From an uncultured Anaerolineales bacterium (GTDB lineage: Bacteria > Chloroflexota > Anaerolineae > Anaerolineales > UBA11858): DNA of 64,000 bases. Below, piece by piece: positions 12,232 through 59,120 of this stretch. Where the stretch lies: positions 23,566-87,565 of the forward strand of contig CAZVIH010000076.1 of assembly GCA_964627755.1 (NCBI GenBank). The letters are read 5' to 3'. Made by a program: the position numbers and the translations under genes. The notes beneath the pieces were generated by a model that saw only the letters and a program-made list of their open reading frames with translations, made no database searches and had not been told where the DNA came from. Positions within the stretch are counted from its first letter, which is position 1. Each line of letters opens with the position of its first letter.

Positions 12232-13332
12232 ATGGCTAGCGTTAAGTATGAACACGTATATAAGCGTTTTGACGATGTAGTTGCCGTCAACGACCTCACT
12301 CTTGAAGTTGAGGATAAGGAATTCCTGGTATTAGTTGGTCCTTCGGGCTGCGGGAAATCCACAGCGCTTAGGTTGCTAGCTGGCCTGGAAGAAATCTCTG
12401 AAGGAACCCTGATAATCGGTGACCGCGTTGTGAATGATGTCGCACCCAAAGACCGTGATATCGCGATGGTGTTCCAAAGTTATGCTCTCTACCCCCATAT
12501 GTCGGTTTATGACAACATGGCATTTGGATTAAAGCTGAGAGACTATCCCAAAGACCAGATCGCCGAACGAGTCAATAATGCAGCTGAGATATTGGGCATC
12601 ACAGCCCTACTGGAAAGAAAACCGCGCCAGCTCTCTGGTGGACAGCGTCAGCGTGTTGCCCTGGGTCGGGCTATTGTCCGTGATCCCCAGGTTTTCCTGC
12701 TCGACGAACCTCTTTCCAACCTGGATGCGAAACTTCGCGTTCAAACCCGAGCGGAAATTACCAAACTGCATAAACGATTGGAAACCACTTTCATTTATGT
12801 GACTCACGACCAAACGGAAGCCATGACCATGGCCAGCCGGATTGCTGTCATGAATCATGGTGTGTTAATGCAGATCGACTCCCCTCAAAACTTATACGAT
12901 AGCCCGAATAACCTCTTTGTGGCTGGATTCATCGGTTCTCCTGCCATGAACTTCTTTAATTCAGAGCTTGTCCAGGAAGGCGAGGATATTGTTGTTAAAA
13001 CTGAATCTTTTGCAGTAAAAGTACCACCAGCCCGCCGGGCTTCATTAAAGAATCATGTTGGTAAAACTGTTGTATTTGGACTGCGCCCCGAAGACATTCA
13101 CGATCCCAACTTCGCCCCTCCCGCAATTATTGCTCAAAACGTGGAGACCGTTGTTGACCTCACCGAATTGATGGGTAATGAGATCTTCCTGTTCTTAAAA
13201 AGTGGCGAGGATGAATATGTTGCCCGTGTTGACCCCCGCACAAGCTACAAGATGGGTGATAAGGTCACCATGGCCTTCAACATGAATAACATGCACATTT
13301 TTGACAAGGAAACTGAGCAGGTAGTCCGGTAA
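12232..13332 (+). CDS. sugar (CUT1-type) ABC transporter ATP-binding protein, MalK/MsiK/UgpC family; orphan, with no adjacent permease or SBP
   Basis: Walker A GPSGCGKST, signature LSGGQRQRVALGRA, Walker B FLLDEPLSNLD, plus a C-terminal TOBE-like regulatory domain. Confidence 0.9.
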   Translation: MASVKYEHVYKRFDDVVAVNDLTLEVEDKEFLVLVGPSGCGKSTALRLLAGLEEISEGTLIIGDRVVNDVAPKDRDIAMVFQSYALYPHMSVYDNMAFGLKLRDYPKDQIAERVNNAAEILGITALLERKPRQLSGGQRQRVALGRAIVRDPQVFLLDEPLSNLDAKLRVQTRAEITKLHKRLETTFIYVTHDQTEAMTMASRIAVMNHGVLMQIDSPQNLYDSPNNLFVAGFIGSPAMNFFNSELVQEGEDIVVKTESFAVKVPPARRASLKNHVGKTVVFGLRPEDIHDPNFAPPAIIAQNVETVVDLTELMGNEIFLFLKSGEDEYVARVDPRTSYKMGDKVTMAFNMNNMHIFDKETEQVVR

Positions 13333-14687: not shown

Positions 14688-15374
14688 TTATCCCTCTCCA
14701 TCGTTATCACGAGCCATTTTTATTCTGGACGGCAAGATCCAACCCAGCAGAACTCCCCCCGCCAAAGTCAGGATCCCAAATACCAGGAAAATATCCTGCC
14801 AGAATTGAACTGGGAAAAGCCGGATCAGAGAATCTGAATAAAAAAACAACCAGCTATCACCTTCAAAAAATAGCAAATGAAAATTGGTGAATAAAGCCTG
14901 GAAACTGATCAACGTCAAAAACAGAATCATGACCACTAACCCTGCTGTTATTTTTCCCCCCAGGTAAATCGATTTTAAATAAATCTCCTGCCAATTTTTC
15001 ACACTGGCGATCAAACCGCCAAGAACAAATACTGCTCCCGCCCCGTAAAACACCTTGAGGACTCCCTGAAGCACGATCTTCACATCCTCCAGATGAGATA
15101 ATTCACGTTCGATATAGATAGGATCTCCGTTTTCAAAAACCAACAGCTGAAGATCTTCAAGAGTGTCATTGCTGATCAAATAGCGCCGGGTCTGATTACC
15201 AAAATCCAGCCGCTCCGCTGTGGTAAAGCCGTAACTATCATCGGGAAAACCAGGGCGGCGGTATTCCAGGTTTGTGAATATCGGACTCAGCAATACCAGG
15301 ATCGATAAAACGCTGATAATTAGCGGAATTGTCAGTGTAATCAGGACACTGAAACCTTTTCTTAATATAATCAT
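14688..15374 (-). CDS. integral membrane protein, DUF1461/TIGR01906-like
   Basis: N-terminal TM, then LEYRRPGFPDDSYGFTTAERLDFGNQTRRYL, then three further TM segments. Overlaps the upstream gene by 4 nt. Confidence 0.55.
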   Translation of the reverse strand: MIILRKGFSVLITLTIPLIISVLSILVLLSPIFTNLEYRRPGFPDDSYGFTTAERLDFGNQTRRYLISNDTLEDLQLLVFENGDPIYIERELSHLEDVKIVLQGVLKVFYGAGAVFVLGGLIASVKNWQEIYLKSIYLGGKITAGLVVMILFLTLISFQALFTNFHLLFFEGDSWLFFYSDSLIRLFPVQFWQDIFLVFGILTLAGGVLLGWILPSRIKMARDNDGEG

Positions 15375-25686: not shown

Positions 25687-26045
25687 TTTATCCTTTTGAA
25701 AACTGCTGGACAAGGTACTAATCACCCAATTTGAAAAATGCCTATCCGAAATCTAGCAGGTGATATAATAGAAATCATCCTTGATAGATTCAAAAATAGT
25801 GAGTATGATAATTATTATTGTTCTTCAATCTCGAGGATTGGACATATCCAAAGTTAATAGACCATCACTCACGTATTGAATTTTGCTGCCAACCTATCAA
25901 ATTAGGCACTAATCTCTTGATATGCTGTTTATTACTCTAATTTCTACATTTTTCAGGATTACTTGTAAAGGAGGTGGTAAGACTCAACTATATAGTACAT
26001 CCCCGTATTCCTATTTTATCCAATTAAGATGTAAGGAGTAGAAGA

Positions 26046-28388
26046 ATGAAAACAAAACGTTTCTTTTGGGCGCTGATTGCCCTCTTGATCGTCGGTTCTC
26101 TCGTTCTCAGCGCTTGCGGCGGAGCAAAAGAAACTGCCGCTGTTGAAGAACCTGCTGCTGTCGGACCGATGGATGGTACTTACTACGAACGCGCCATGGC
26201 TGGCGAATTTGCTGGCACTGTTGTTACAATGACTGGCCCCTTCACTGATGAAGATGCTGTTAAATTTGATTCCTCTGTGGCTGCCTTCGAAGAAGCCACA
26301 GGCATTGACATTCAGTATGAAGGTTCCAAGGAATTCGAAGCCACCATCACCCTGCGTGTTGACGCTGGTGATGCCCCCGATATCGTGGACTTCCCTCAGC
26401 CCGGCTTGCTCGCCACTATGGTAGCTCGCGGCGCAGTTGTTGATGTATCCACCTTCCTGCCCCAATCCTCCTTTGATAATTACAATCAAAGCTGGTGGGA
26501 CATGGCCACCATGGCTGGACCCGATGGCGATATCATTGCTGGTGTCTGGCACCGCTTCAACGCCAAGAGCCAGGTCTGGTACCCCCAAGCCCAGTTTGAG
26601 GCTGCTGGTTATACCATTCCAGAGACCTGGGATGAAATGATCGCACTCTCTGACCAGATCGTCGCTGATGGCGACACACCCTGGTGTGTTGGCATCGAGT
26701 CAGGCGCAGCCACCGGTTGGCCTGCCACCGACTGGATGGAAGAAATAATGCTCCGCACAACCTCCCTCGAGAACTATGACGCCTGGGTGAGAGGCGACCT
26801 GCCCTTCAGCTCTCCCGAAGTCAAACACGCTCTCGAAGTTCTGGCCGACCTATGGAAGGATGAGTACGTCTATGGCGGTTCTGAAGCCATTGTCACCACC
26901 TTCTTTGGTGATGCCCCCACCCCCATGTTTGAAGATCCGCCCAAATGCTGGCTCCACAAGCAGGGCAACTTCATCACCAGCTTCTTCCCCGAAGGTGTTC
27001 AGTATGGAACCGATTATGGTTTCTTCTACCTTCCCGGTATTGATGAAGCATACGGTAGCCCATACCTGGTTGCAGGCGACATCATGGCCATGTTCAGTGA
27101 CCGCGATGAAGTCCGCGCTGTCATGGAATTCTTCACCCATGGTGAAGCTTTGAAAGAATGGCTAGCTGCCGGCGGCGCTCTTGCAATGCAGCTGGACACC
27201 GATCTGAACTGGTACAGCGACGAAGTCGAGAGAGGTATTGCCGAACTCGTTAACAATGCCACCTCCGTACGCTTTGATGGTTCCGACCTGATGCCCGGTG
27301 AAGTTGGTTCAGGCTCCTTCTGGACCGGTATGACCGACTTCTTCTCCGGTGTTGCTGATGAGGACACAGTGTTGGCTGAAATTGACGCCTCCTGGCCTCT
27401 GAAGGTTGCCGAAGGTGATCTCGGAAGCGAGACCAATCCAATCCAGGTTCTCTTTGTTCCGTCCGTCGATGCCAACATCATCGTTACCGGTGGTGAGATC
27501 ATGGCCGATGCCCTGTCTGCTGCCACTGGATTGAGCTTTGAGGTTTCAGTACCAACCTCCTACGCAGCGACCATCGAAGAGATGTGCGCTTCCCCGGATA
27601 AATCCATGGGCTTTATCCCAGGCTTGGGCTATGCCCTGGCCAGCCAGCTCTGCGGCGTGGACGTATCCTTTAAAGCTATTCGCTACGGATATCCTGTATA
27701 TTGGGCGGAATACATTGTTGCCCGCGATAGCGATTTCCAGACCCTGGAAGACCTGGAAGGCGCGAGCTGGGGCTACCCCTACCGAGCCTCAACCTCTGGT
27801 TACATGGTTCCCTATGTTGAATTGACCGAGTTGGGTGTTAAATGGGGTGATGAGATTGAGACTGGTGGTCACAACCAGACCGTTACTGCCGTCTACAACA
27901 ATGAAGTGGACTTCGGCACCGTCTTTTACAGTGTGCCGCTGACTCCTGATGGTCCTCCCCTTTTCACCTGGGATGAGTACCTCGCTGGCGACATTACTAC
28001 ACTGGACCAGTATCTACCTCCTGCTGATGTCGTTCCGAACTGTGCCCTCAATGAAGACGGAAGTAAACTCCTCTGCGATGGATACCGCATTCTGGATGCC
28101 CGTGCCAACATTCGCACCGAGGCTCCTGATGTGATACAGAAAGTACGCGTTCTGGCGATCTCCCAGATCGTCCCGAACGACACCCTGGCCTTTGGTCCTG
28201 ATTTCCCCGCGGATGTCCGCGCCAAGGTCGAGTCAGCCCTTCTTTCCTTCGCTGATACTGAAGAATGGAGTGCATCAATCGGCAACAACGACTTCTACGG
28301 CTGGACAGGTATTGAGCCTGCTACCGATGCCGAATACGATGTCGTTCGTCAGATGGTTATTCAAACTGGCTACGAGCTGGAAGAGTAG
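26046..28388 (+). CDS. lipoprotein fusing two substrate-binding domains: an N-terminal CUT1 sugar-type SBP and a C-terminal PhnD-type (phosphonate/phosphite family) SBP
   Basis: Lipobox LVLSAC|GG. Residues about 30-455 look like a family-1 extracellular solute-binding protein (PWCVGIESGAATGWPATDWMEEIMLR). Residues about 462-780 carry PhnD-like blocks (IQVLFVPS...YAATIEEM...GFIPGLGYALA...YWAEYIVARDSDFQTLEDLEGASWGYPYRASTSGYMVP...FGTVFYS). Confidence 0.8.
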   Translation: MKTKRFFWALIALLIVGSLVLSACGGAKETAAVEEPAAVGPMDGTYYERAMAGEFAGTVVTMTGPFTDEDAVKFDSSVAAFEEATGIDIQYEGSKEFEATITLRVDAGDAPDIVDFPQPGLLATMVARGAVVDVSTFLPQSSFDNYNQSWWDMATMAGPDGDIIAGVWHRFNAKSQVWYPQAQFEAAGYTIPETWDEMIALSDQIVADGDTPWCVGIESGAATGWPATDWMEEIMLRTTSLENYDAWVRGDLPFSSPEVKHALEVLADLWKDEYVYGGSEAIVTTFFGDAPTPMFEDPPKCWLHKQGNFITSFFPEGVQYGTDYGFFYLPGIDEAYGSPYLVAGDIMAMFSDRDEVRAVMEFFTHGEALKEWLAAGGALAMQLDTDLNWYSDEVERGIAELVNNATSVRFDGSDLMPGEVGSGSFWTGMTDFFSGVADEDTVLAEIDASWPLKVAEGDLGSETNPIQVLFVPSVDANIIVTGGEIMADALSAATGLSFEVSVPTSYAATIEEMCASPDKSMGFIPGLGYALASQLCGVDVSFKAIRYGYPVYWAEYIVARDSDFQTLEDLEGASWGYPYRASTSGYMVPYVELTELGVKWGDEIETGGHNQTVTAVYNNEVDFGTVFYSVPLTPDGPPLFTWDEYLAGDITTLDQYLPPADVVPNCALNEDGSKLLCDGYRILDARANIRTEAPDVIQKVRVLAISQIVPNDTLAFGPDFPADVRAKVESALLSFADTEEWSASIGNNDFYGWTGIEPATDAEYDVVRQMVIQTGYELEE

Positions 28389-28439: not shown

Positions 28440-28552
28440 GTGATAAATTTATCCGAGTGAAAAATTTCGACGTATCAGAAAAATCAATCCCATATGCTTT
28501 TTTTAGGCGTGAATTGCGCCCAGAACTTATTTATGAATAAGGATAGTTGCTA

Positions 28553-29305
28553 ATGTTACAAATTCGTAACCTAACCAAGATCTACGAAGGGGGTGTCAAA
28601 GCCCTGGATAATGTCAGTTTTGACGTACCGAATGGTCAATTCCTGACGGTGATCGGGTTGAGTGGATCCGGCAAATCTACATTACTGCGCTGCATCAACC
28701 GCTTGATCGAACCCACAGAGGGACAGATCATCTGGAACGGTGAAGATATTACTAAAGCCTCGCCGGAAGAAATGCGCCGTATCCGCCGCAAGATCGGTAT
28801 GGTTTTCCAACATTTCAACCTTGTACACCGCTCCAAAGTACTTACAAATGTTCTGGCAGGTCGATTGGGTTATGTGAACCCTACCTGGAGTTTGTTGAAT
28901 CGTTTTCCAAAGAAGGATAGTGAAAAAGCCATTAAAAAGATGGAGCGTGTGGGGATCGCTGACAAAGCCCAGAGCCGGGCGGATGAGCTGAGCGGTGGGC
29001 AGCAGCAGCGCGTAGGTATTGCTCGCGCCTTAATGCAGGATCCCGAAATGATCCTGGCAGATGAACCGGTCGCCAGCCTTGATCCAGTTTTAGCCCACAG
29101 TATCATGAAGCACCTTGAAGATATAAATAAAAATGACGGAGTTACAGTATTATGTAGTCTGCACTTTCTTGATCTCGTCCACCGTTATGCCGATTATGTG
29201 ATTGCCTTGAATGAAGGTAAGCTGGTCTTCGAAGGTACACCCGAGCAGATCGATGATAATAAATTTAAGGATATCTACGGCCGCGATGCCGAGCGAGTAG
29301 GATAA
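28553..29305 (+). CDS. phnC: phosphonate-type ABC transporter ATP-binding protein PhnC
   Basis: LQIRNLTKIYEGGVKALDNVSFDV, Walker A GLSGSGKSTLLRCINRL, LSGGQQQRVGIARAL, ILADEPVASLD. Confidence 0.85.
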   Translation: MLQIRNLTKIYEGGVKALDNVSFDVPNGQFLTVIGLSGSGKSTLLRCINRLIEPTEGQIIWNGEDITKASPEEMRRIRRKIGMVFQHFNLVHRSKVLTNVLAGRLGYVNPTWSLLNRFPKKDSEKAIKKMERVGIADKAQSRADELSGGQQQRVGIARALMQDPEMILADEPVASLDPVLAHSIMKHLEDINKNDGVTVLCSLHFLDLVHRYADYVIALNEGKLVFEGTPEQIDDNKFKDIYGRDAERVG

Positions 29306-29311
29306 AGAGTT

Positions 29312-31156
29312 ATGAAGAATAAAAAAGAGAACAAAACCTCCTTATGGAAATCCTTGAAAATCGGGGTGATTACTTTGCTTATTATGATCATCCTGGCCTA
29401 CGGGTTCCAGATCACTCGAGTAGATTTGGAAGAGCTGAGCAGCGAACAACGTCAGGATAGTCTGATCCGAGTAACCCGAGCACTGGCTAAACCCGATTTT
29501 TTTGAATACAACAAGACAGAAGAGATCGTCAATACCCCGTTTTACCTCCCATGTCCTGAAGGTGGTTCAATACCTGAGGTTCCATCACAAGATCAATCCA
29601 ATCCTTATCTGGTTATCACCCCCGCCTGTGCCAGCAGCGGTGATACCATCACGGTCGAGGGATTTAATTTCGCTCCTAGTGCATCTGGGCCCCTGCGCTT
29701 TGTGCCTGGAAGCGACCAAGAGAATCTTGTTACCCTGGGACGTGTATCTGTAAAAACCGATCTTTCGGGCCATTTCATATCCAGTATGGATCTTCCTGAC
29801 CGCGAAAGTGATGAGGTGCAATATATACGCGTCTCACTCTCGCGCAACACGGGAGCACCTCATTTTAGCCAGTCTGCTCGGGACACATTGGAAAAGATCA
29901 TTGAGACGGTCTTCCTCGCTTTGTTGGCAACAATCTTCGGTACGATAATCGCCATCCCGATGAGTTTCTTTGCTGCCCGCAACTTGATGAAACCGGTAAA
30001 AAGCCCATTGTTGAGCATTTCTCTATCTGTCCTGGGCTGGCCTATCGGCATAGCAGTGGGTTTCATGATTATCCAAGCCCTGGGCAATTTCAGCGATTCG
30101 ATCGGTGTGAATGTATGGGTCAACCTGGCAAGTATTGTGATAGCCCTGACCATTATCTGGTTTGCCTTTCGCTGGGCTGTACCACCAGAGGAACTTGTCC
30201 CCCCATCTCTCATCATTCGCGTGGTCCGCATCGCGGTGTTATTCATAGGAGTGGTTTTTAGCTTCTATGGCTTATTCCAACTGATCAGCGTGTTGAGAAC
30301 CCTTGGAGCGAATCTTACTGATAGCCTGGGTTCGTTCGGTTTTTTGGGAAATTTCCTCTTCCAACTCAGTGATATTAGCAAACTTCTGATCCCCGTTCTC
30401 GGAGGTTTGGCAGCCGGGGGCTTTCTGGGCAGCTTCATGGGCCGCATCGGGCAACGAGGCTCAGAGAAAATTGCTGAAAGGGGATTGAAAATCATCAATT
30501 TGATTACTGCGTCCACCGCCGGAGCCACCCTGCTGGTCTTGCTTGGGCAGTTGCTTGAGTGGTTATATCAGATCGAAAATCCTTTATATACTCTTTGGGG
30601 TCCATTAGCTGTTGGCGGATTGATGGGACTCCTACTGGCAATCTTCACTAAAGCCAAGGAGCCTCTGCCCACAGGTCTGGCGATTTATTACATTACCCGC
30701 ACCTTCCTAAATGCCTTGCGTTCGGTAGAAGCTTTAATCATGGCGATTGTTTTTGTCATTGCAGTCGGCATCGGTCCCTTTGCCGGTGTGTTAGCCCTCG
30801 GCTTACATACCATTGTCAGCCTCGCTAAACTCTACTCCGAACAGGTCGAGAGCATCATGTCCGGCCCGTTGGAAGCCATCCAGGCAACAGGAGCCAACCG
30901 CCTGCAAACTATCATCTATGCTGTTGTCCCTCAGATTGTTCCGCCCTATATTTCCTATACCATGTACCGTTGGGATATCAACGTTCGCATGTCCACCATC
31001 ATCGGTTTTGTAGGCGGGGGCGGGATTGGCTTCTTGCTCCAGCAGAATATCAACCTGCTTAACTACCGCGGTGCTAGCGCTCAGATGGTGGCGATTGCCG
31101 TGGTTGTGGCGTCGATGGATTACGTCAGCTCTGTAGTCCGGGAACGTATGGTCTAA
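29312..31156 (+). CDS. phnE: PhnE-type ABC permease, expanded (614 aa) with an N-terminal extracytoplasmic domain and extra TM helices
   Basis: C-terminal EAA-loop block PLEAIQATGANRLQTIIYAVVPQIVP and MSTIIGFVGGGGIGF, typical of PhnE. The N-terminus has one TM, then about 160 aa including ITPACASSGDTITVEGFNFAPSASGPLRF. Confidence 0.8.
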   Translation: MKNKKENKTSLWKSLKIGVITLLIMIILAYGFQITRVDLEELSSEQRQDSLIRVTRALAKPDFFEYNKTEEIVNTPFYLPCPEGGSIPEVPSQDQSNPYLVITPACASSGDTITVEGFNFAPSASGPLRFVPGSDQENLVTLGRVSVKTDLSGHFISSMDLPDRESDEVQYIRVSLSRNTGAPHFSQSARDTLEKIIETVFLALLATIFGTIIAIPMSFFAARNLMKPVKSPLLSISLSVLGWPIGIAVGFMIIQALGNFSDSIGVNVWVNLASIVIALTIIWFAFRWAVPPEELVPPSLIIRVVRIAVLFIGVVFSFYGLFQLISVLRTLGANLTDSLGSFGFLGNFLFQLSDISKLLIPVLGGLAAGGFLGSFMGRIGQRGSEKIAERGLKIINLITASTAGATLLVLLGQLLEWLYQIENPLYTLWGPLAVGGLMGLLLAIFTKAKEPLPTGLAIYYITRTFLNALRSVEALIMAIVFVIAVGIGPFAGVLALGLHTIVSLAKLYSEQVESIMSGPLEAIQATGANRLQTIIYAVVPQIVPPYISYTMYRWDINVRMSTIIGFVGGGGIGFLLQQNINLLNYRGASAQMVAIAVVVASMDYVSSVVRERMV

Positions 31157-43207: not shown

Positions 43208-43921
43208 CTATTCCATCCCTAGATAGGCCTTCTGAACCATTTCGTCCTGGCGTAAATTCTCAGCGCTGTCCTTAAGAACGATTTCTCCTGTCTGGAGCAC
43301 ATATCCGCGGTCAGCGACCGCCAAGGCCACTGTAGCATTCTGTTCTACCAATAAAATTGTTGTCCCGGTTTTGTTAATGGCCTGGATAGTCTCAAAAACG
43401 CTTTCCACCAGGATAGGAGCCAAACCCATGGACGGCTCGTCCATTAACAGCAATCTGGGGTTTGCCATTAAGGCCCGAGCTGTAGCAAGCATTTGCTGTT
43501 CCCCACCAGACAGTGTGCCTGAAACCTGTTTTGCCCGTTCCTTCAGTCGGGGGAATAACTGATACACCCTGTCCAGATCATCATCAAATCTGGACCGGTC
43601 AGGTTGGGAATAAGCCCCCATATCCAGATTTTCAAAAACAGTAAGCCTGGCAAATATCCCCCGCCCTTCCGGAACCATCGTAATTCCTTTGTACACAAGT
43701 TCATGCGCTGGTGTACCTGAAATCTTTTCACCTTCAAAATAGATATCTCCAGATCGAGGACTAAGCAACCCGCTGATCGTCCGCAGGGTGGACGTTTTAC
43801 CCGCCCCGTTCCCTCCAATCAAAGTCACGATTTCCTTTTCTTCAACGGTAATCGAGACACCTTTCAGGGCGTGGATATTACCATAATAAGTATGTATGTT
43901 ATTTACTTCTAGCATCGCCAT
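43208..43921 (-). CDS. livF: branched-chain amino acid ABC transporter ATP-binding protein LivF
   Basis: GGNGAGKTSTLRTISGL, LSGGEQQMLATARAL, LLMDEPSMGLAP. Confidence 0.9.
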   Translation of the reverse strand: MAMLEVNNIHTYYGNIHALKGVSITVEEKEIVTLIGGNGAGKTSTLRTISGLLSPRSGDIYFEGEKISGTPAHELVYKGITMVPEGRGIFARLTVFENLDMGAYSQPDRSRFDDDLDRVYQLFPRLKERAKQVSGTLSGGEQQMLATARALMANPRLLLMDEPSMGLAPILVESVFETIQAINKTGTTILLVEQNATVALAVADRGYVLQTGEIVLKDSAENLRQDEMVQKAYLGME

Positions 43922-43956
43922 AATATCATTCCACTTTGGAGTGCATTGCCTTGATA

Positions 43957-44724
43957 TCAGGCAGCTCCCCGTCCTAAATATGATTCAATTACCTGGGGAT
44001 TCTTCTGAATTTCTCCCGGGGTTCCTTTAGCAATTAACTGGCCAAAATCCAATACATAGATAAACTCACTGATGCCCATAACTACTTTCATATCATGTTC
44101 GATCAACAGGATTGTGATCTTCAATTCGTCCCGCAAACTTTCAATAAAGCGCATCATGGTTACTGATTCATTGGGATTCATTCCAGCAGTGGGTTCATCC
44201 AGCAATATGATCTTAGGGTTATTCGCCAGCGCCCGGGCCATTTCCAAACGGCGTTGTTCACCATAGGGTAAACCGCTAGCTAATAAATCGCCTTTGCCTT
44301 TTAATCCCACAAAATTCAGTAAATCCTGGGCTTTTTCGAGAGCCTTTTTCTCTTCCGCTCTTTGCCTGGGAGTACGAAGGATCGCATCAACCCAATTAGA
44401 TTTTAATTGAGGGTGAGCACCTACCAGGATATTTTCCAGGGCTGTCATAGCCGGGAAGAGGCGGATATTCTGGTATGTTCGTGATATACCCAGCTTGGTA
44501 ATTCTATCAGGAGATAAACCCAATAGGGATTGACCATTAAACAGCATATCACCCTCATCAGCAGGGTAAAATCCAGTAATACAGTTATATAAGGTGGTTT
44601 TTCCAGCTCCGTTAGGACCAATAATGGCATAAATCGACCCTTCGGGAATCTGAAGAGTAACATTATCGACAGCAGATAAACCACCAAAACGTTTGGTTAC
44701 ATTACGGGTTTCTAGAATACTCAT
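43957..44724 (-). CDS. livG: branched-chain amino acid ABC transporter ATP-binding protein LivG
   Basis: GPNGAGKTTLYNCITGFY, LPYGEQRRLEMARAL, ILLDEPTAGMNP. Confidence 0.9.
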   Translation of the reverse strand: MSILETRNVTKRFGGLSAVDNVTLQIPEGSIYAIIGPNGAGKTTLYNCITGFYPADEGDMLFNGQSLLGLSPDRITKLGISRTYQNIRLFPAMTALENILVGAHPQLKSNWVDAILRTPRQRAEEKKALEKAQDLLNFVGLKGKGDLLASGLPYGEQRRLEMARALANNPKIILLDEPTAGMNPNESVTMMRFIESLRDELKITILLIEHDMKVVMGISEFIYVLDFGQLIAKGTPGEIQKNPQVIESYLGRGAA

Positions 44725-44727
44725 CTG

Positions 44728-46293
44728 CTAACCCTCTTTCCCTACTAAACTATCATCAGTTGGGAGAATTTCCAACTCCTTTTCATGAAGTTCCATCCTC
44801 CTGCGCGGTGCGGGCCAAATCCCTTCTGGACGAATAATCATCATAATGACCAACAGAGCGCCAAATACAAGCAGACGGTAGAGTTCCAGCTCACGAAGGA
44901 TCTCCGGTAGGCCTTTGAGAACAAAAGCGCCGATGATCACTCCAGGTATACTGCCCATCCCGCCAACGATCAACAGACAGAGCACATTAATTGAAACCAT
45001 CAGAGTATGGTCCGCAGGGCCGGTGTATTGGTTCCTAGCCGCAAATAAGGCTCCTCCTAATCCTGCGAAGGCAGCGCCTGTCGCAAATGCCATCAGTTTG
45101 TAATAAAACGTATTAATGCCCATCGCTTGAGCAACTGTTTCATCTTCTCTCATTGCCATCCAGGCCCGTCCTACCCGGGAATTCTGCAGGGAATTGGTAA
45201 AGACAATTGTCAATAAGATAGCCAGGATGATCAAATAAAGGTAAGCTTTTTCAGTGTTAATAGATAATCCAAAAAAACTTGGTCCCGCAATATCCCGGAT
45301 GCCTTGAGGGCCGCCCAAATAGGGCGACATCATATCACTTCTGATCAGGACGCGGATAATCTCGCCAAACCCAAGAGTAACAATTGCCAGGTAATCCCCT
45401 CTCATTCGGAGAACTGGTATCCCAAGGATGATTCCAGCAAAGGCAGCAAACACCACACTCAGAATCAACACAGGCCAGAAGCCGATTTGCAGGGCGATCG
45501 GCGCGGGTGCAGTAAGCAAACCCGCAGTATATGCGCCAATGGCAAAGAATGCCACATAACCGAGGTCAAGCAATCCGGCTAATCCAACTACTATGTTCAA
45601 ACCCAATCCCATTAACACATAAATACCAACTGTTCCCATGGCATAGTTCCAATATTTACCCAAAAACTGGGGCATCAGAAATACCACAATACCTAAAATC
45701 CCATATCCAATCCATTTGGATATGGGATTTTCTTTATACTGAGTTACAAGTTTGGAATCCAGTACCTTTTCCTTCAAAATAAAGACTTGCTTCTGGATGA
45801 CCTCGCCCGCATTCTTGGCTTCAAACCAATAGGCTAACAAAGCTCCCAGGATTCCAAAAAAGAAGAAAATCCCAAAGGTCATTAAAACACCTGGAATGAG
45901 ACTTCTTCCGAAAAGTAAAAATTGGATGGAAAGGTGATCCAGTTGGGCGAGATAATCCCGCATGGCAATCTCTTTGCTGTCCAGGAATCCTACCAGGAGT
46001 ATAAAAGCAGCAACGAATAAACCGATGACCAAACTTGCTGCTGCTCCAGAGACCAGGGCGGATTTCCATTTTGATCTATCCGCCGCTGAAGCCCTGGATC
46101 CTGCCCACAAGCTCAATATGGCAAAAATGATCATTAAGCCGCTTGAGTTACCAGTGCGGGTATTGGAGTCAAGATTAACAAAATCACCCAAAATATCAGA
46201 TAAGGTTGTTGTTAGACCAAACAAGATCAAGAAGATGATCACAACTCCAAATACCAAGCCTAACCGCAAACCCTGTTTAATTAGATCCTTCAT
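44728..46293 (-). CDS. livM: branched-chain amino acid ABC permease LivM with an about 170-aa N-terminal membrane extension
   Basis: Core GLNIVVGLAGLLDLGYVAFFAIGAY...AMREDETVAQAMGINT. Extra TM helices precede it. Confidence 0.85.
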   Translation of the reverse strand: MKDLIKQGLRLGLVFGVVIIFLILFGLTTTLSDILGDFVNLDSNTRTGNSSGLMIIFAILSLWAGSRASAADRSKWKSALVSGAAASLVIGLFVAAFILLVGFLDSKEIAMRDYLAQLDHLSIQFLLFGRSLIPGVLMTFGIFFFFGILGALLAYWFEAKNAGEVIQKQVFILKEKVLDSKLVTQYKENPISKWIGYGILGIVVFLMPQFLGKYWNYAMGTVGIYVLMGLGLNIVVGLAGLLDLGYVAFFAIGAYTAGLLTAPAPIALQIGFWPVLILSVVFAAFAGIILGIPVLRMRGDYLAIVTLGFGEIIRVLIRSDMMSPYLGGPQGIRDIAGPSFFGLSINTEKAYLYLIILAILLTIVFTNSLQNSRVGRAWMAMREDETVAQAMGINTFYYKLMAFATGAAFAGLGGALFAARNQYTGPADHTLMVSINVLCLLIVGGMGSIPGVIIGAFVLKGLPEILRELELYRLLVFGALLVIMMIIRPEGIWPAPRRRMELHEKELEILPTDDSLVGKEG

Positions 46294-47387
46294 CAGACTT
46301 TCTCCTCCGATAAGACTTCACCCATAATGCCCGATGGACGGAAGATCAATACCAGAACCAAGATTGAAAATGCAATCACGTCTTTAAGCTGGAAGTCTAT
46401 TCCCAGGACAGCAGGCCCAAGTGATTCAACAATTCCCAGGAATATCCCGCCAACCATGGCTCCCGGGATATTACCAATACCCCCCAGAACCGCAGCTGTA
46501 AAAGCTTTCAGTCCAGGGATGAAGCCCACATAGTGATAAATGATCCCGTTGTGAATTCCCCACATCACTCCTGCTGCTCCCCCCAGAGCACCACTGATAA
46601 TAAATGTATTGCTGATAATCCGGTCTACATCGATTCCCATCAATGCAGCGGTTTGTTTATTCTCAGCCACGGCGCGCATAGATCTGCCATAGCGGGTTCT
46701 CATAACCAGGGTATAGAGGGCAATCAGGAGAAAGATAGACAATACAAAGGTCAATACACCTGTATAGGTAAGAATAACCTCTTCTCCACCTATCGGGATC
46801 CGCCAACCCTGACTACGGGACAAGGACATGGGATTGTAATAAGTTCTGCGTTTTGGCCCAAACATAACCTGGGCGGCGTTTTGCAGAAAGATAGAAGCAC
46901 CGATGGCGCTGATCAGTGGAATAAGTCTGGGTGCTCCGCGAAGAGGGCGGTAAGCAATCCGCTCCAAAAAATAACCAGACAGGGCAGCCATGAACATGCC
47001 TACAATAAATGCCAGTACTACAGAGATAATTTGATAAGAATCCAAAAAGCTCAATCCGGTGGCGGCTACAGGTACTGATTTCAGGGCTTCAAAAACAAAA
47101 TATCCTGAAAAAGCGCCAATCATCATGATTTCGCCGTGGGCGAAGTTAATCATAAAAAGGATTCCATATACAAGTGTGTACCCGATGGCGATCAAGGCAT
47201 AGACACTGCCAATGATCAGCCCACTCAAGGCAAATCTCACCCAGGTATCCGGCCCGTATACACCAGAATTTATCACGTTATACAACCGCCAGGATAGAAA
47301 CGCAAGAAATAACACAGAAATAATTGCTTGGATAATCGTAAACGAGTTAATGCGTCCGGTTGATTTTTTGGGTTTTGTCTCACTCAT
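46293..47387 (-). CDS. livH: branched-chain amino acid ABC permease LivH
   Basis: YALIAIGYTLVYGILFMINFAHGE, MRAVAENKQTAALMGIDVD, GGIGNIPGAMVGG. Confidence 0.85.
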   Translation of the reverse strand: MSETKPKKSTGRINSFTIIQAIISVLFLAFLSWRLYNVINSGVYGPDTWVRFALSGLIIGSVYALIAIGYTLVYGILFMINFAHGEIMMIGAFSGYFVFEALKSVPVAATGLSFLDSYQIISVVLAFIVGMFMAALSGYFLERIAYRPLRGAPRLIPLISAIGASIFLQNAAQVMFGPKRRTYYNPMSLSRSQGWRIPIGGEEVILTYTGVLTFVLSIFLLIALYTLVMRTRYGRSMRAVAENKQTAALMGIDVDRIISNTFIISGALGGAAGVMWGIHNGIIYHYVGFIPGLKAFTAAVLGGIGNIPGAMVGGIFLGIVESLGPAVLGIDFQLKDVIAFSILVLVLIFRPSGIMGEVLSEEKV

Positions 47388-47434
47388 AAAAACCTTCTTT
47401 AGTCTTTGATATATCCATTACTATAAAGGGATTA

Positions 47435-47463
47435 GCGAGGCAAGCATGAAAAGCTTGCCTCGC
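47435..47463 (-). terminator. hairpin between livJ and livH (intra-operon attenuator or stabiliser)
   Basis: GCGAGGCAAGC-7 nt-GCTTGCCTCGC, a perfect 11-bp stem. Confidence 0.45.
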
Positions 47464-47498
47464 AGTGTTGTATCATGGTTCTGAAACAGACTTAGTGG

Positions 47499-48707
47499 CT
47501 AGGGAATAACCCAGACGCCATCTCGCACTACCTGGAAGGATGGGCCAGAAGCATTGCACTCACCACCATTGCAGGTCAGTACACCAGTCAGACCTTGATA
47601 GCCTTCAAGTCCATTGACTGCATCTACCAGAGCTTCACGAGGAATATAAAGATTTCCATCGTCGCCGAGGATAGCAACAGATTTGATAGCCTGGATTAGA
47701 GCGTCTACGACGTCATAACCATGCCAGGTGAAGGTTGAGACTGCGCCAGGAGCATCACCATAAACGCTCTCGAAGTAAGCATCAAACTCTGCCTTGCGGG
47801 CACTCTCTAGCGGTGCGCCAGTAGCAGCGTAGACACCTTCTGATAGGTCACCAGCTAGTTCGATGAAGGCTTCACCATAACTACCGTCATCGCTGAACAG
47901 GATCACATCCTCCATACCGGCAACGGGCATACCTTGGGCGATCACAGCACATTCTGGATAGTATCCACCAAAGTAAATGGCTTCGGGATCAGCGGAACCA
48001 ATATCTGTCAAAACAGCGCTGTAGTCAGTCTCACCGGGAGTGATGGCTTCTACGGCAACAACTTCACCACCAAGGCTCATAAATACTTGCTGAACTCTCT
48101 CAGCAACACCCTTACCATACGCATCACCATCATGCATGACAGCAAGTTTGGTCACACCTAAAACATTATAGAGGTACTCTGCAGCAAACTGACCCTGCAG
48201 GTCATCGGTGAAGGGGATGCGGTTGAAAACATCCTGGTCACCTTCGGTGAGGTCAGCACGGGTTGCAGATGGGGAAAGCATCGGAAGTCGGGCTGCATTG
48301 TAGATGGGGATTGCAGCTGCTGCGGAACCAGAGAAAGTGTGGCCGGCAATTGCAACCACATCAGGATCAGAAACGTAAAGGTTCGCAACAGAGGCGCCAC
48401 CTTCACCACTTCCCTGGGTATCCTCTACCAGCAATTCGAACTCAAAGCCATCCACTCCACCATCGGCATTAGCGTCATCTACTGCCAGCAAACCAGCATT
48501 GGAGATGTCGGTTCCAAAGGCAGAGTAGTCGCCAGCCATAGGTCCTGCGTAACCAATTTTAACGGTGCTGCCTTCATCAATAACAGCACAAACTGATTCA
48601 TCAGGGTTTTCGGCACAGACATCGGGAGCTTTCGCTCCACCACCACATGCAGCCAGGATCAAGCTGAGGGCGATTACGATACTAAATAGATAATATCTCT
48701 TAGACAT
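47499..48707 (-). CDS. branched-chain amino acid ABC substrate-binding lipoprotein (LivJ/K family)
   Basis: Lipobox LILAAC|GG and type-I periplasmic binding fold blocks (VKIGYAGPMAGDYSAFG, VVAIAGHTFSGS, LGVTKLAVMHDGDAYGKG). AAGGAGG RBS. Confidence 0.85.
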   Translation of the reverse strand: MSKRYYLFSIVIALSLILAACGGGAKAPDVCAENPDESVCAVIDEGSTVKIGYAGPMAGDYSAFGTDISNAGLLAVDDANADGGVDGFEFELLVEDTQGSGEGGASVANLYVSDPDVVAIAGHTFSGSAAAAIPIYNAARLPMLSPSATRADLTEGDQDVFNRIPFTDDLQGQFAAEYLYNVLGVTKLAVMHDGDAYGKGVAERVQQVFMSLGGEVVAVEAITPGETDYSAVLTDIGSADPEAIYFGGYYPECAVIAQGMPVAGMEDVILFSDDGSYGEAFIELAGDLSEGVYAATGAPLESARKAEFDAYFESVYGDAPGAVSTFTWHGYDVVDALIQAIKSVAILGDDGNLYIPREALVDAVNGLEGYQGLTGVLTCNGGECNASGPSFQVVRDGVWVIP

Positions 48708-58097: not shown

Positions 58098-59120
58098 ATG
58101 AAAATAAAAAGAATCGCCCCCGCCCTATTAACCGGTCTGATTGTTGGTTTATTGGCTATGACCTTGTTTACTGGCATGGTTTCAGCAGCCCCAAATACTC
58201 AAGGAGAAGATCCGCCTGAGAAGATATTGACTGACAATGATTGCGTTAAATGTCACCGGAATGTCGCTGATGATTGGTCCCATAGTCCGCATGCTCACGC
58301 TTATGATGATCCGGCTTTCCAGGAACAATGGATCGGTCTGGGCACTCCGGATACATGTCTTGCTTGCCATACCACCAATTTCATGTCAACCACTGGTGAA
58401 TATGAAACCGAGGGTGTTTCCTGCCAGTCCTGCCATGGTGCTGTCACAGAAAATCATCCCGACCAGGTGGTTCCCACAATTGTCGATTCTTATTACTGCG
58501 GCTCCTGCCATACTACAACTTTGAGCGAATGGCGCAGCACAGGACATGCCTCAAGTGACGTAGACTGCATGGACTGCCATAATCCTCACAGCCAACAACC
58601 GCTCTTTAATGATCATGATGATCTCTGCATTAATTGTCACAAAGACAGCATGGGAGATTATCTAAACGATCTCCATGTTCAAGAAGATATTGGCTGCGTG
58701 GATTGCCATGCGCTGGTACTCCCCCCTGATGTCGTCCCAGAAGACGGTATCGTCCCAACTGGACATGGGTTCACTATCTCAGCTGAGACCTGCGTTGCCT
58801 GTCATACAGATTCCCTGCACGCTGGGTTTACATTGCCCGGTTACGAAAACGGCGCAGCTAATAATGAACCTTTCCACACCAGCACTGAAGAACACGGGAG
58901 TACTGAAGGTGCTCAGCCGTTGACAGATACCACTCAGTCAAACGATCTAACAGATACTCAACGCATCCAAACCCTTGAGACTGCTCTTGCCAGCAGTCGG
59001 GTGAGCAATTTGTTCCAAGGCGCTGTGATCGGCCTGGTCCTGGGTGGAAGCACTGCCTGGTTCGTGGGTCAGAATCTTCGCGGCCGGTCAGATGAGGAGG
59101 AAGAGGAAAATGATCTCTAA
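58098..59120 (+). CDS. octaheme c-type cytochrome with an N-terminal signal/anchor and a C-terminal TM helix
   Basis: Eight CxxCH motifs: CVKCH, CLACH, CQSCH, CGSCH, CMDCH, CINCH, CVDCH, CVACH. C-terminal FQGAVIGLVLGGSTAWFVG and an acidic tail. Confidence 0.85.
   Translation: MKIKRIAPALLTGLIVGLLAMTLFTGMVSAAPNTQGEDPPEKILTDNDCVKCHRNVADDWSHSPHAHAYDDPAFQEQWIGLGTPDTCLACHTTNFMSTTGEYETEGVSCQSCHGAVTENHPDQVVPTIVDSYYCGSCHTTTLSEWRSTGHASSDVDCMDCHNPHSQQPLFNDHDDLCINCHKDSMGDYLNDLHVQEDIGCVDCHALVLPPDVVPEDGIVPTGHGFTISAETCVACHTDSLHAGFTLPGYENGAANNEPFHTSTEEHGSTEGAQPLTDTTQSNDLTDTQRIQTLETALASSRVSNLFQGAVIGLVLGGSTAWFVGQNLRGRSDEEEEENDL

Follow-up and report, generated by a model that had tools for sequence, protein, structure and literature searches.

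In the textbook ATP-binding cassette (ABC) importer, one class of receptor, the substrate-binding protein (SBP), serves one transporter and is encoded in the same operon. Streptococcal AdcA is a ZnuA-type SBP lipoprotein with a C-terminal ZinT domain; both parts bind zinc and serve one transporter. In eukaryotes, ionotropic glutamate receptors and class-C G-protein-coupled receptors (GPCRs) carry LIVBP-like amino-terminal and GlnH-like ligand-binding domains. To our knowledge, GlnPQ-type proteins are the only well-studied multi-receptor chains of ABC importers. In GlnPQ of Lactococcus lactis, the homologous tandem substrate-binding domains (SBDs), SBD1 and SBD2, belong to the same polypeptide as the permease and supply a single transporter; their specificities can differ, and they probably compete with each other to dock on the translocator (PMC8025302). 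Here we analysed a 64,000-nucleotide stretch of contig CAZVIH010000076.1 from an uncultured Anaerolineales bacterium (the window), in which one gene encodes a lipoprotein with two unrelated SBPs in a row, a sugar-type SBP of the CUT1 class (N-domain) and a PhnD/PtxB-type SBP (C-domain). Our favoured reading, to which we give a probability of about 0.6, is that these are two independent, functional ABC-importer receptors in series on one lipid anchor, feeding different transporters. The gene, its parts and the two genes that follow it are arranged as below (HMM, hidden Markov model; AF2, AlphaFold2; pLDDT, predicted local distance difference test score).

26046 to 28388, forward strand: fusion gene, open throughout with no interruption, product of 780 residues
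26046 to 26117, forward strand: signal peptide with lipobox MKTKRFFWALIALLIVGSLVLSAC and lipidated Cys24, from the translation
26118 to 26174, forward strand: flexible tether, residues 25 to 43 (GGAKETAAVEEPAAVGPMD, 19 residues), with low pLDDT and a composition like that of tethers of related lipoprotein SBPs
26175 to 27401, forward strand: N-domain, complete CUT1 or family-1 sugar-type SBP, residues 44 to 452, from HMM, AF2, Foldseek and conservation
27402 to 27419, forward strand: linker KVAEGD, residues 453 to 458 (6 residues), from BLAST mapping and coinciding with the mosaic breakpoint described below
27420 to 28388, forward strand: C-domain, complete PhnD/PtxB-type SBP of the 'type A' lineage, residues 459 to 780 plus the stop codon, from HMM, AF2 and Foldseek
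28547 to 29305, forward strand: PhnC-type ABC ATPase (TIGR02315, 336 bits against a cut-off of 266)
29312 to 31156, forward strand: PhnE-type permease of 614 residues (TIGR01097, 234.6 bits against 216.7, in two stretches, the best at residues 434 to 613)

The fusion is confirmed as a genuine single chain. The identical 780-residue protein, with the same neighbours, is present in three independent Joint Genome Institute (JGI) metagenomes, samples 3300077105, 3300031276 and 3300031341, and full-length homologues of the same architecture, 54-73% identical, form at least 14 protein clusters. Orthologues of the same architecture also occur in several Anaerolineales metagenome-assembled genomes (MAGs), including long-read contigs of 0.36-1.5 Mb. 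The DNA of the junction reads clean and in frame, the linker contains no Cys, lipobox, stop or frameshift, and the second domain has neither a start codon nor a signal peptide of its own. The tether is rich in Ala, Glu and Pro, and the domain borders were set by BLAST mapping against homologues. A preliminary description of this DNA had read the gene as a single lipoprotein with a lipobox, a complete family-1 SBP and then a complete PhnD-type SBP, which translation, HMM matches and folds bear out. It had placed the domain boundary at nucleotides 27410-27420, in agreement with the mapped linker, and had named a missed stop or frameshift near nucleotide 27400 as what would undo it; the frame is intact in the three samples and in many MAGs. 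The same fusion, which it had suggested looking for in other genomes, occurs in the clusters and MAGs just described.

The C-domain matches PF12974 (Phosphonate-bd) at residues 470-764 with 121.2 bits (cut-off 27), covering profile positions 3-242 of 242, and TIGR01098 of NCBIfam with 117.3 bits (cut-off 112.05). This domain-wise search agrees with the earlier assignment of the C-terminal part to the PhnD family. The equivalog of E. coli-type PhnD, TIGR03431, gave only 81.4 bits against a cut-off of 261.1, and because the score is so far below the cut-off the C-domain should not be called an alkylphosphonate PhnD orthologue. AF2 predicted residues 465-780 with pLDDT above 90, and Foldseek placed the model beside PtxB (5O2J and 5JVB), PhnD (3P7I), HtxB, ArrX and AioX, with target template-modelling (TM) scores of 0.64-0.81. 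Its motifs 'rASTSGymvP' and 'GGH' align with 'rASTSshliP' and 'GtH' of PtxB. In E. coli PhnD, the Ser-Thr-Ser loop and the His are the oxyanion-binding residues. From its families, fold and motifs, the C-domain probably binds a small phosphorus oxyanion, e.g. phosphonate, phosphite or a related ion; the ligand would lie within the family of phosphorus and arsenic oxyanions.

The closest relatives of the C-domain are stand-alone PhnD lipoproteins of about 378 residues, which are 72-83% identical to it and have their own signal peptide and tether. In the loci examined, a stand-alone type-A PhnD always stands before PhnC and a PhnE of about 610 residues. Together with the equivalog-level scores of the two downstream genes, which agree with the preliminary description that only PhnC and PhnE are encoded there, these comparisons show that PhnCE is cognate to the C-domain. 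The first ~430 residues of PhnE in the window form a long extension, including a predicted extracytoplasmic stretch at residues ~60-190, and the long form (603-630 residues) is kept in relatives with a complete phnE, both those with a fused SBP and those whose SBP stands alone. P0121-P0123, the nearest PhnD relatives, lie on contigs of about 1.2 kb and were considered as possible fragments of fusions; this was rejected, as each has its own signal peptide, lipobox and tether (P numbers denote proteins and L numbers loci).

The N-domain matches PF01547 (SBP_bac_1) at residues 74-364 with 58.6 bits (cut-off 26; profile positions 10-298 of 307) and PF13416 (SBP_bac_8) at residues 78-379 with 53.4 bits (cut-off 27). 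With a 60-sequence alignment, in which whole N-N proteins (two N-domains in tandem) were aligned to the N-domain, AF2 gave a mean pLDDT of 94 and a predicted TM score (pTM) of 0.90. The best Foldseek match in the PDB was AcbH (3OOA, TM 0.79/0.83), followed by proteins that bind chitooligosaccharides, glucose/galactose and xylo-oligosaccharides; in sequence, the domain shares only 14-18% identity with any SBP of solved structure. The fold and these neighbours suggest that the N-domain binds a mono- or oligosaccharide. Single N genes, encoding about 450-510 residues, stand after a LacI-type regulator and before two CUT1 permeases, without an ATPase, and this order was seen in Anaerolineae, Chloroploca, an Alkalispirochaeta and a Bauldia. 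No CUT1 permease adjoins the gene of the window, whereas orthologous N genes in other genomes do adjoin CUT1 permeases, and the N family as a whole is therefore transporter-associated. A sample of 80 loci was also drawn with the clade-specific CUT1 permease instead of the SBP; the SBP genes upstream of the permease comprised 37 complete single N, two N-N and one Peripla_BP_4-N. This makes N an ordinary sugar receptor of the CUT1 class, with fusions in the minority.

The ATPase that single N genes lack may be supplied from elsewhere. CUT1 systems of monoderm bacteria usually use a shared MalK/MsiK-type ATPase, and the window encodes such a protein away from any permease of this class:

12232 to 13332, forward strand: orphan MalK/MsiK-type ATPase with ABC_tran, OB_MalK and TOBE_2 domains, flanked by MutS and phosphoglycerate mutase (iPGM)

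The preliminary description had already singled out this gene as an orphan MalK-like ATPase and had stated that the sugar-type domain has no CUT1 permease in cis. Its domain content and the absence of CUT1 permeases from the whole 64-kb window are in line with both statements. Neither SBP domain of the fusion occurs a second time in the window. We infer that this ATPase is a candidate for energising in trans the CUT1 permeases that the N-domain would serve, and its presence argues that such permeases exist elsewhere in the genome.

Both halves of the protein are intact and constrained, and neither resembles a decaying passenger. Against orthologues at dS 0.6-1.5, the ratio of nonsynonymous to synonymous substitutions (dN/dS) is 0.07-0.10 for the N-domain and 0.12-0.18 for the C-domain. 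The N-domain of the window keeps all 85 of the 85 family-conserved columns, defined by conservation of at least 97% across 205 N-domains that occur in other contexts.

Comparison of related genomes indicates how the two halves came together. In the syntenic locus YceG, FolC, [SBP], PhnC, PhnE, LarE, LarB, the SBP differs between genomes: a PhnD of type B alone (L048, L051), SBP3-PhnD(B) (L053), N-PhnD(B) (L013, L014, L029) or, in the window, N-PhnD of type A. Compared with L013, the window shows 89% identity in N and 68-93% in the flanking genes, but 52% in PhnD, 50% in PhnE and 78% in PhnC. Against stand-alone type-A loci, the corresponding values are 72-76% for PhnD, 84-90% for PhnC and 62-73% for PhnE. 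In a sliding-window plot, identity switches at residues 450-465, which is the domain boundary. The PhnD tree agrees with this: the domain of the window is nested in the stand-alone type-A clade and every other N-PhnD falls in type B, whereas in the N tree the N-domain of the window groups with those of the syntenic type-B fusions. SBP3-PhnD fusions arose separately in the type-A and type-B clades, and at least four independent fusion events were counted on the PhnD tree. N modules of different fusion proteins are 85-90% similar. In one MAG, the PhnD modules of Bmp-PhnD (L050) and SBP3-PhnD (L053) are 99.5% identical over 962 nucleotides, which is probably a recent duplication. These comparisons show a modular protein of mosaic origin, whose N part was inherited vertically with the locus. 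In the lineage of the window, a type-A PhnD-phnC-phnE cassette took the place of the linker and all that follows it, up to the end of phnE, in an N-PhnD(type B)-phnCE locus.

The beginnings of these genes are also shared. Nearly the same signal peptide, MKTKRFFW[AV].[IL]ALLI..SL.L.ACGG, is carried by eight lipoprotein types of one Anaerolineales clade, namely N-PhnD, N, N-Bmp, PhnD alone, Bmp-PhnD, SBP3-PhnD, Bmp and SBP3-Bmp. By blastn, a ribosome-binding site (RBS) and signal-peptide cassette of about 90-120 nucleotides is 80-88% identical between genes whose mature parts, built from N, PhnD, Bmp or SBP_bac_3, are unrelated.

~26033 to 26122: RBS and signal-peptide cassette of the window, compared with the gene starts of L048, L050, L051, L053-L056, L020 and L022
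26034 to 26038, forward strand: Shine-Dalgarno sequence AGGAG, 7 nucleotides ahead of the ATG, part of this cassette

Signal peptides normally diverge quickly. The conservation of the cassette therefore suggests recombination or exchange at the 5' end. Linkers in the fusion family have 6-52 residues, mostly 6-25; they are mostly acidic, like the N-terminal tethers, and lack a lipobox. Module shuffling is the origin that we favour: the SBP genes of this clade have the cassette in common, and whole domains enter, double or swap at their short acidic tethers or linkers.

The fusion of N with PhnD is one of several combinations. Domain mapping of 56 loci, with Pfam checks, gave the following architectures and neighbours.

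N-N: adjoining CUT1 permeases (L006, L027, L028)
N-Bmp: adjoining LacI and CUT1 permeases (L019, L020, L022, L025)
N-PhnD: adjoining PhnCE (the window, L013, L029, and L014, whose contig stops inside phnC)
N-PhnD: adjoining CUT1 permeases, a GH1 and two GH13 genes (L005)
N-PhnD: adjoining a 504-residue double ATPase (L012)
SBP_bac_3-PhnD: adjoining PhnCE (L040, L043, L053)
Bmp-PhnD: adjoining the double ATPase (L050)
SBP_bac_3-Bmp: adjoining the double ATPase (L056)
N-Peripla_BP_6-PhnD: adjoining LivGFHM-type genes (L008; L023 is the same gene on a contig that stops inside it)
N-SBP_bac_3-Bmp-PhnD, 1351 residues: adjoining a BPD_transp_1 permease and ATPase (L007)
Bmp alone: adjoining the same kind of BPD_transp_1 permease (L055)

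N occurs alone, as N-N, or fused to Bmp, a LivJ-like domain, SBP_bac_3 or Peripla_BP_4, and PhnD occurs alone or fused to SBP_bac_3, Bmp, Ser/Thr kinases, TIR or NosD. An exhaustive search of representatives with the PhnD domain found 139 clusters at E <= 1e-30, and about 21 of the best 150 representatives carry N-terminal extensions. Scanning of 20 extended representatives revealed further SBP_3-PhnD, Bmp-PhnD, Bmp-SBP_3-PhnD and PhnD-PhnD proteins, together with Ser/Thr-kinase-PhnD, kinase-Bmp-PhnD (P0271), TIR-PhnD and NosD-PhnD; four further representatives added another PhnD-PhnD (P0302) and a 3481-residue surface protein. The preliminary description had called the fusion unusual; this stands, except that the protein is not a one-off and belongs to a recurrent, lineage-wide phenomenon.

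In the multi-SBP genes seen, the transporter in cis matches one of the fused domains, which may be the first, a middle one or the last, and sometimes matches none, so the remaining domains must act in trans. The N-PhnD gene of L005 is the only SBP gene of an operon with LacI, CUT1 permeases, GH1 and GH13; N must therefore be the receptor at work there and PhnD the one that serves in trans. Two further mismatches in cis were seen. At L012:1616-5660, N-PhnD lies directly upstream of the 504-residue double ATPase that is typical of Bmp-containing fusions. At L055:5579-8352, the genes that directly follow a stand-alone Bmp-type SBP encode a BPD_transp_1 permease and ATPase like those beside the SBP_bac_3-containing fusion of L007.

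A fixed order of domains was considered and rejected. An order with N first and PhnD last held in the first 45 loci and was then broken for N by Peripla_BP_4-N in L077, and a fixed order of middle modules was broken by Bmp-SBP3-PhnD (P0376) as against N-SBP3-Bmp-PhnD (P0066). The sole rule still holding is that PhnD is always C-terminal in the SBP-SBP lipoproteins seen. The exception for N, at L077:634-3084, is an 816-residue lipoprotein upstream of CUT1 permeases, in which Peripla_BP_4 (CUT2 sugar-type) is followed by N (CUT1); it joins two different classes of sugar SBP with N as the C-terminal module. PhnD is also the C-terminal part of kinase, TIR and NosD/beta-helix proteins; this set, which includes the 3481-residue protein with its LamG, PhnD, SBP_bac_5, Peripla_BP_6 and PKD domains, comprises P0252, P0288, P0355, P0271, P0247, P0249, P0278, P0305 and P0258.

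Tandem N-N lipoproteins of about 900 residues are widespread in Anaerolineae, Caldilineales and Thermoflexales (proteins P0002-P0120; loci L006:8187-10679, L027:10157-12649 and L028:10181-12664). The two copies within a protein have a median amino acid identity of 99% (at least 99% in 50 of 91), and those of L027 are 100% identical over 1221 nucleotides, whereas orthologues from different genomes are 50-80% identical. The pattern is also present on Mb-scale contigs. This contrast indicates concerted evolution or repeated re-duplication within the gene.

In the favoured reading, with two receptors feeding two transporters, the distal PhnD/PtxB-type domain would bind a phosphorus oxyanion and dock on the adjacent PhnE, energised by PhnC. 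The proximal CUT1-type domain would bind a sugar and dock on a CUT1 permease pair encoded elsewhere, powered by a shared MsiK/MalK-type ATPase, for which 12232-13332 is the obvious candidate. The two clefts would act independently and create no joint binding site; through the fusion, both domains would have one promoter, one signal peptide and one lipid anchor and would be made in a common stoichiometry. Docking of N in trans and the independence of the two sites are what the comparisons suggest, and the promiscuity of partners and the pattern of transporters in cis and in trans favour the idea, put forward in the preliminary description, that the protein feeds two transporters.

Several points weigh against this reading. 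The window contains no CUT1 permease, and the scan of metagenomes with the clade-specific permease gave 80 loci, none of them from the three samples that hold the protein of the window. Among the Pfam matches of its neighbours in the window, there are no genes for phosphonate or phosphite catabolism (C-P lyase, phnX/W, ptxD). Purifying selection implies that each domain is functional, but that function need not be transport. The 6-residue linker may sterically limit simultaneous docking of both domains, and the AF2 model of the full-length protein (40-sequence alignment; pTM 0.49, pLDDT of the N-domain ~40) does not resolve their orientation. All comparative data come from MAG and metagenome sequences, and the proteins are known from their genes alone.

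The alternative that survives best, which we nevertheless consider unlikely, is that only PhnD is a transport receptor and that N, without a CUT1 partner in the genome, is a spacer or stalk, a carrier for folding or export, a binder of surface sugars or glycans, or an aid to expression or anchoring. The lack of a CUT1 permease in the window and the very short linker would fit such a role, as would the position of N, which adjoins the lipid anchor in most of the fusions observed, and the unusual likeness of N modules from different fusions, as expected of a generic module. However, a spacer would hardly be under such strong purifying selection over its whole length or keep every residue that is conserved in the N-domains of bona fide CUT1 operons. 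N can be the C-terminal module, as in L077, and in L005 a CUT1 operon has the fusion as its one SBP gene. The orphan MalK-type ATPase also argues for CUT1 permeases elsewhere in the genome.

It is less likely still that receptors for carbon and phosphorus are linked so that the two uptakes depend on each other, through competition for docking or ligand-dependent contacts, or that the protein is the ectodomain of a sensor. The 6-residue linker holds the domains close, and PhnD modules, even a Bmp-PhnD tandem, do form the extracytoplasmic parts of Ser/Thr kinases and TIR proteins. The protein of the window, however, has no signalling domain, and its PhnD is closest to stand-alone transport SBPs. 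Since partners are promiscuous and the PhnD half was swapped with N unchanged, a co-adapted interface is argued against.

The preliminary description had also raised a composite ligand, such as a phosphonylated or phosphorylated glycan, so that both clefts would capture one molecule with a glycan and a phosphonate or phosphate group. We now regard this as very improbable. The presence of both domain types in one chain with a very short linker would suit it; the sequence matches of the CUT1 fold include a protein named as an sn-glycerol-3-phosphate binder, and the structural neighbours of the PhnD fold include GpxB in complex with G1P, which leaves room for organophosphate ligands. However, N and PhnD are not specifically coupled, each occurring alone or fused to several SBP classes, and the same N-PhnD architecture adjoins three different types of transporter. 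Each domain also keeps the full set of conserved residues of its single-domain relatives. What weakens the idea most is this promiscuity together with the replacement of PhnD lineage B by lineage A behind an unchanged N.

Export as one chain followed by cleavage in the linker into two SBPs is equally hard to credit: the linkers of the family do resemble lipoprotein tethers in being short, acidic and of low complexity, but that of the window has only 6 residues and no internal lipobox or Cys, the linkers of the family have no conserved cleavage motif in common, and PhnD, once released, would escape because the cell has no outer membrane. Finally, an error of sequencing or assembly that joined two adjacent genes is effectively refuted by the identical intact reading frame in three independent samples, the intact orthologues in many MAGs and a second domain without its own signal peptide or start. 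A gene split in two was considered as a natural two-gene form in P0106 (= L011) and P0111, which have about 500 residues of N only, and in L029, and was rejected; L011 and L029 are syntenic loci in indel-ridden long-read assemblies where nearly every gene is in pieces, and these splits are therefore not evidence of a split state.

The joining and swapping of unrelated ABC receptors as modules is apparently a wider habit of this lineage that has not been described before. In the full text covered, with subscription journals mostly outside it, only GlnPQ-type proteins were found, and heterologous SBP-SBP lipoproteins, N-N tandems and the shared signal-peptide cassette were undescribed. A broader proposal, which we offer as tentative, is that the Anaerolineales, perhaps the Chloroflexota more widely, run a modular system of receptor strings. 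The cassette and the acidic linkers would serve as recombination joints, at which CUT1, CUT2, PAAT, Bmp, LivJ-like and PhnD domains are duplicated, homogenised and shuffled. Receptor genes would be uncoupled from transporter operons, and one anchor would carry chains serving two to four importers, possibly with cross-talk between carbon, nitrogen and phosphorus. If true, this would be an unrecognised organising principle for the receptors of ABC importers in monoderm bacteria.

Chains of the type found in the window break the rule of one receptor per operon, as at most one domain adjoins its transporter. Receptors must then routinely find their transporters in trans, and operon context cannot be used to assign the specificity of SBPs in these genomes. 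With a single anchor and promoter, the systems that take up different nutrients can be kept at a set stoichiometry. Databases label the protein of the window 'alpha-glucoside transport system substrate-binding protein' and its relatives 'phosphate/phosphite/phosphonate ABC transporter substrate-binding protein'. Because automatic annotation names one domain only, reconstructions from Anaerolineales MAGs miss or mis-assign uptake, and the shuffling of modules bears on both SBP specificity and the annotation of uptake in Chloroflexota MAGs. Natural chains of two, three or four domains, and likewise the homogenised N-N tandems, would suit studies of how tethered receptors compete for translocators.

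Other features of the window concern expression, anchoring and the remaining SBPs. The fusion gene is richer in GC and in GC at third codon positions (GC3) than its flanking genes (GC3 0.587 in N and 0.573 in PhnD, 0.41-0.50 in neighbours; GC of the window overall 0.466), which could mean that codon usage is adapted to high expression or that the gene is foreign or recombinant. A consensus scan of the region found nine promoter sites against 3.1 expected, predicted from the consensus match alone.

25781 to 25818, forward strand: sigma-70-like promoter candidates, TTGATA-17-TATGAT and an overlapping site, from the consensus scan
14688 to 15374, reverse strand: match to PF07314 (Lit, lipoprotein intramolecular transacylase), 74 bits
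8173 to 8982, reverse strand: insertion sequence-type transposase (rve integrase core and HTH_21), about 17 kb upstream of the fusion gene, with no link to the SBP locus seen
43208 to 48707, reverse strand: complete ABC system of the Liv type (HAAT), whose SBP at 47499 to 48707 is an ordinary protein of one domain and 402 residues

Lit makes lyso-form lipoproteins in some Firmicutes. Its match here hints at a possibly unusual N-terminal structure of lipoproteins, which would be relevant to the anchoring of SBPs. The Liv-type SBP carries a different signal peptide, MSKRYYLFSIVIALSLILAACGGG. Since it is single-domain and has this other signal peptide, not all SBPs of the organism are fused or carry the MKTKRFFW cassette. 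A lipoprotein-like match at 58098 was considered as another SBP fusion and rejected, as it is a multihaem cytochrome.

Compared with known systems, the protein of the window resembles GlnPQ, its nearest precedent in mechanism, in that several SBDs are joined in one polypeptide by short linkers (6 residues here) and tethered at the membrane surface. Unlike those of GlnPQ, its SBDs are on a separate lipoprotein (lipidated at Cys24), with PhnE in a separate reading frame; the two halves have no detectable similarity (PF01547/PF13416 and PF12974) and different cognate transporters, one of them in cis. The C-domain resembles the receptors of PhnCDE, PtxABC and HtxBCDE in its TIGR01098 and PF12974 matches, its PtxB/PhnD fold, its ASTS and GxH motifs, and the PhnC and PhnE that follow it, but it falls below the E. 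coli PhnD equivalog, stands behind a foreign SBP of 45 kDa, and is accompanied by a 614-residue PhnE with a long N-terminal extension and no C-P lyase, phnX/W or ptxD nearby. CUT1 importers with a shared orphan ATPase, such as AglEFG or MalEFG with MsiK (MsiK/MsmK-type), are matched by the CUT1 SBP fold of the N-domain, for which AcbH is the nearest solved SBP, by the LacI gene, two CUT1 permeases and missing ATPase at orthologous N genes, and by the orphan MalK-type ATPase of the window; the N-domain of the window differs in lacking permeases in cis and in being fused to a PhnD-type domain. AdcA, too, is an SBP on a free lipoprotein whose C-terminus bears another ligand-binding domain, not homologous to the first, although this second domain is not of SBP fold and both domains share one ligand and one transporter. 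Ionotropic glutamate receptors and class-C GPCRs also place two classes of binding protein in one extracellular chain, and kinase-Bmp-PhnD (P0271) is a bacterial parallel to them. These, however, are signalling receptors with a channel or seven transmembrane helices, whereas the protein of the window has no signalling module and is encoded in a transporter operon.

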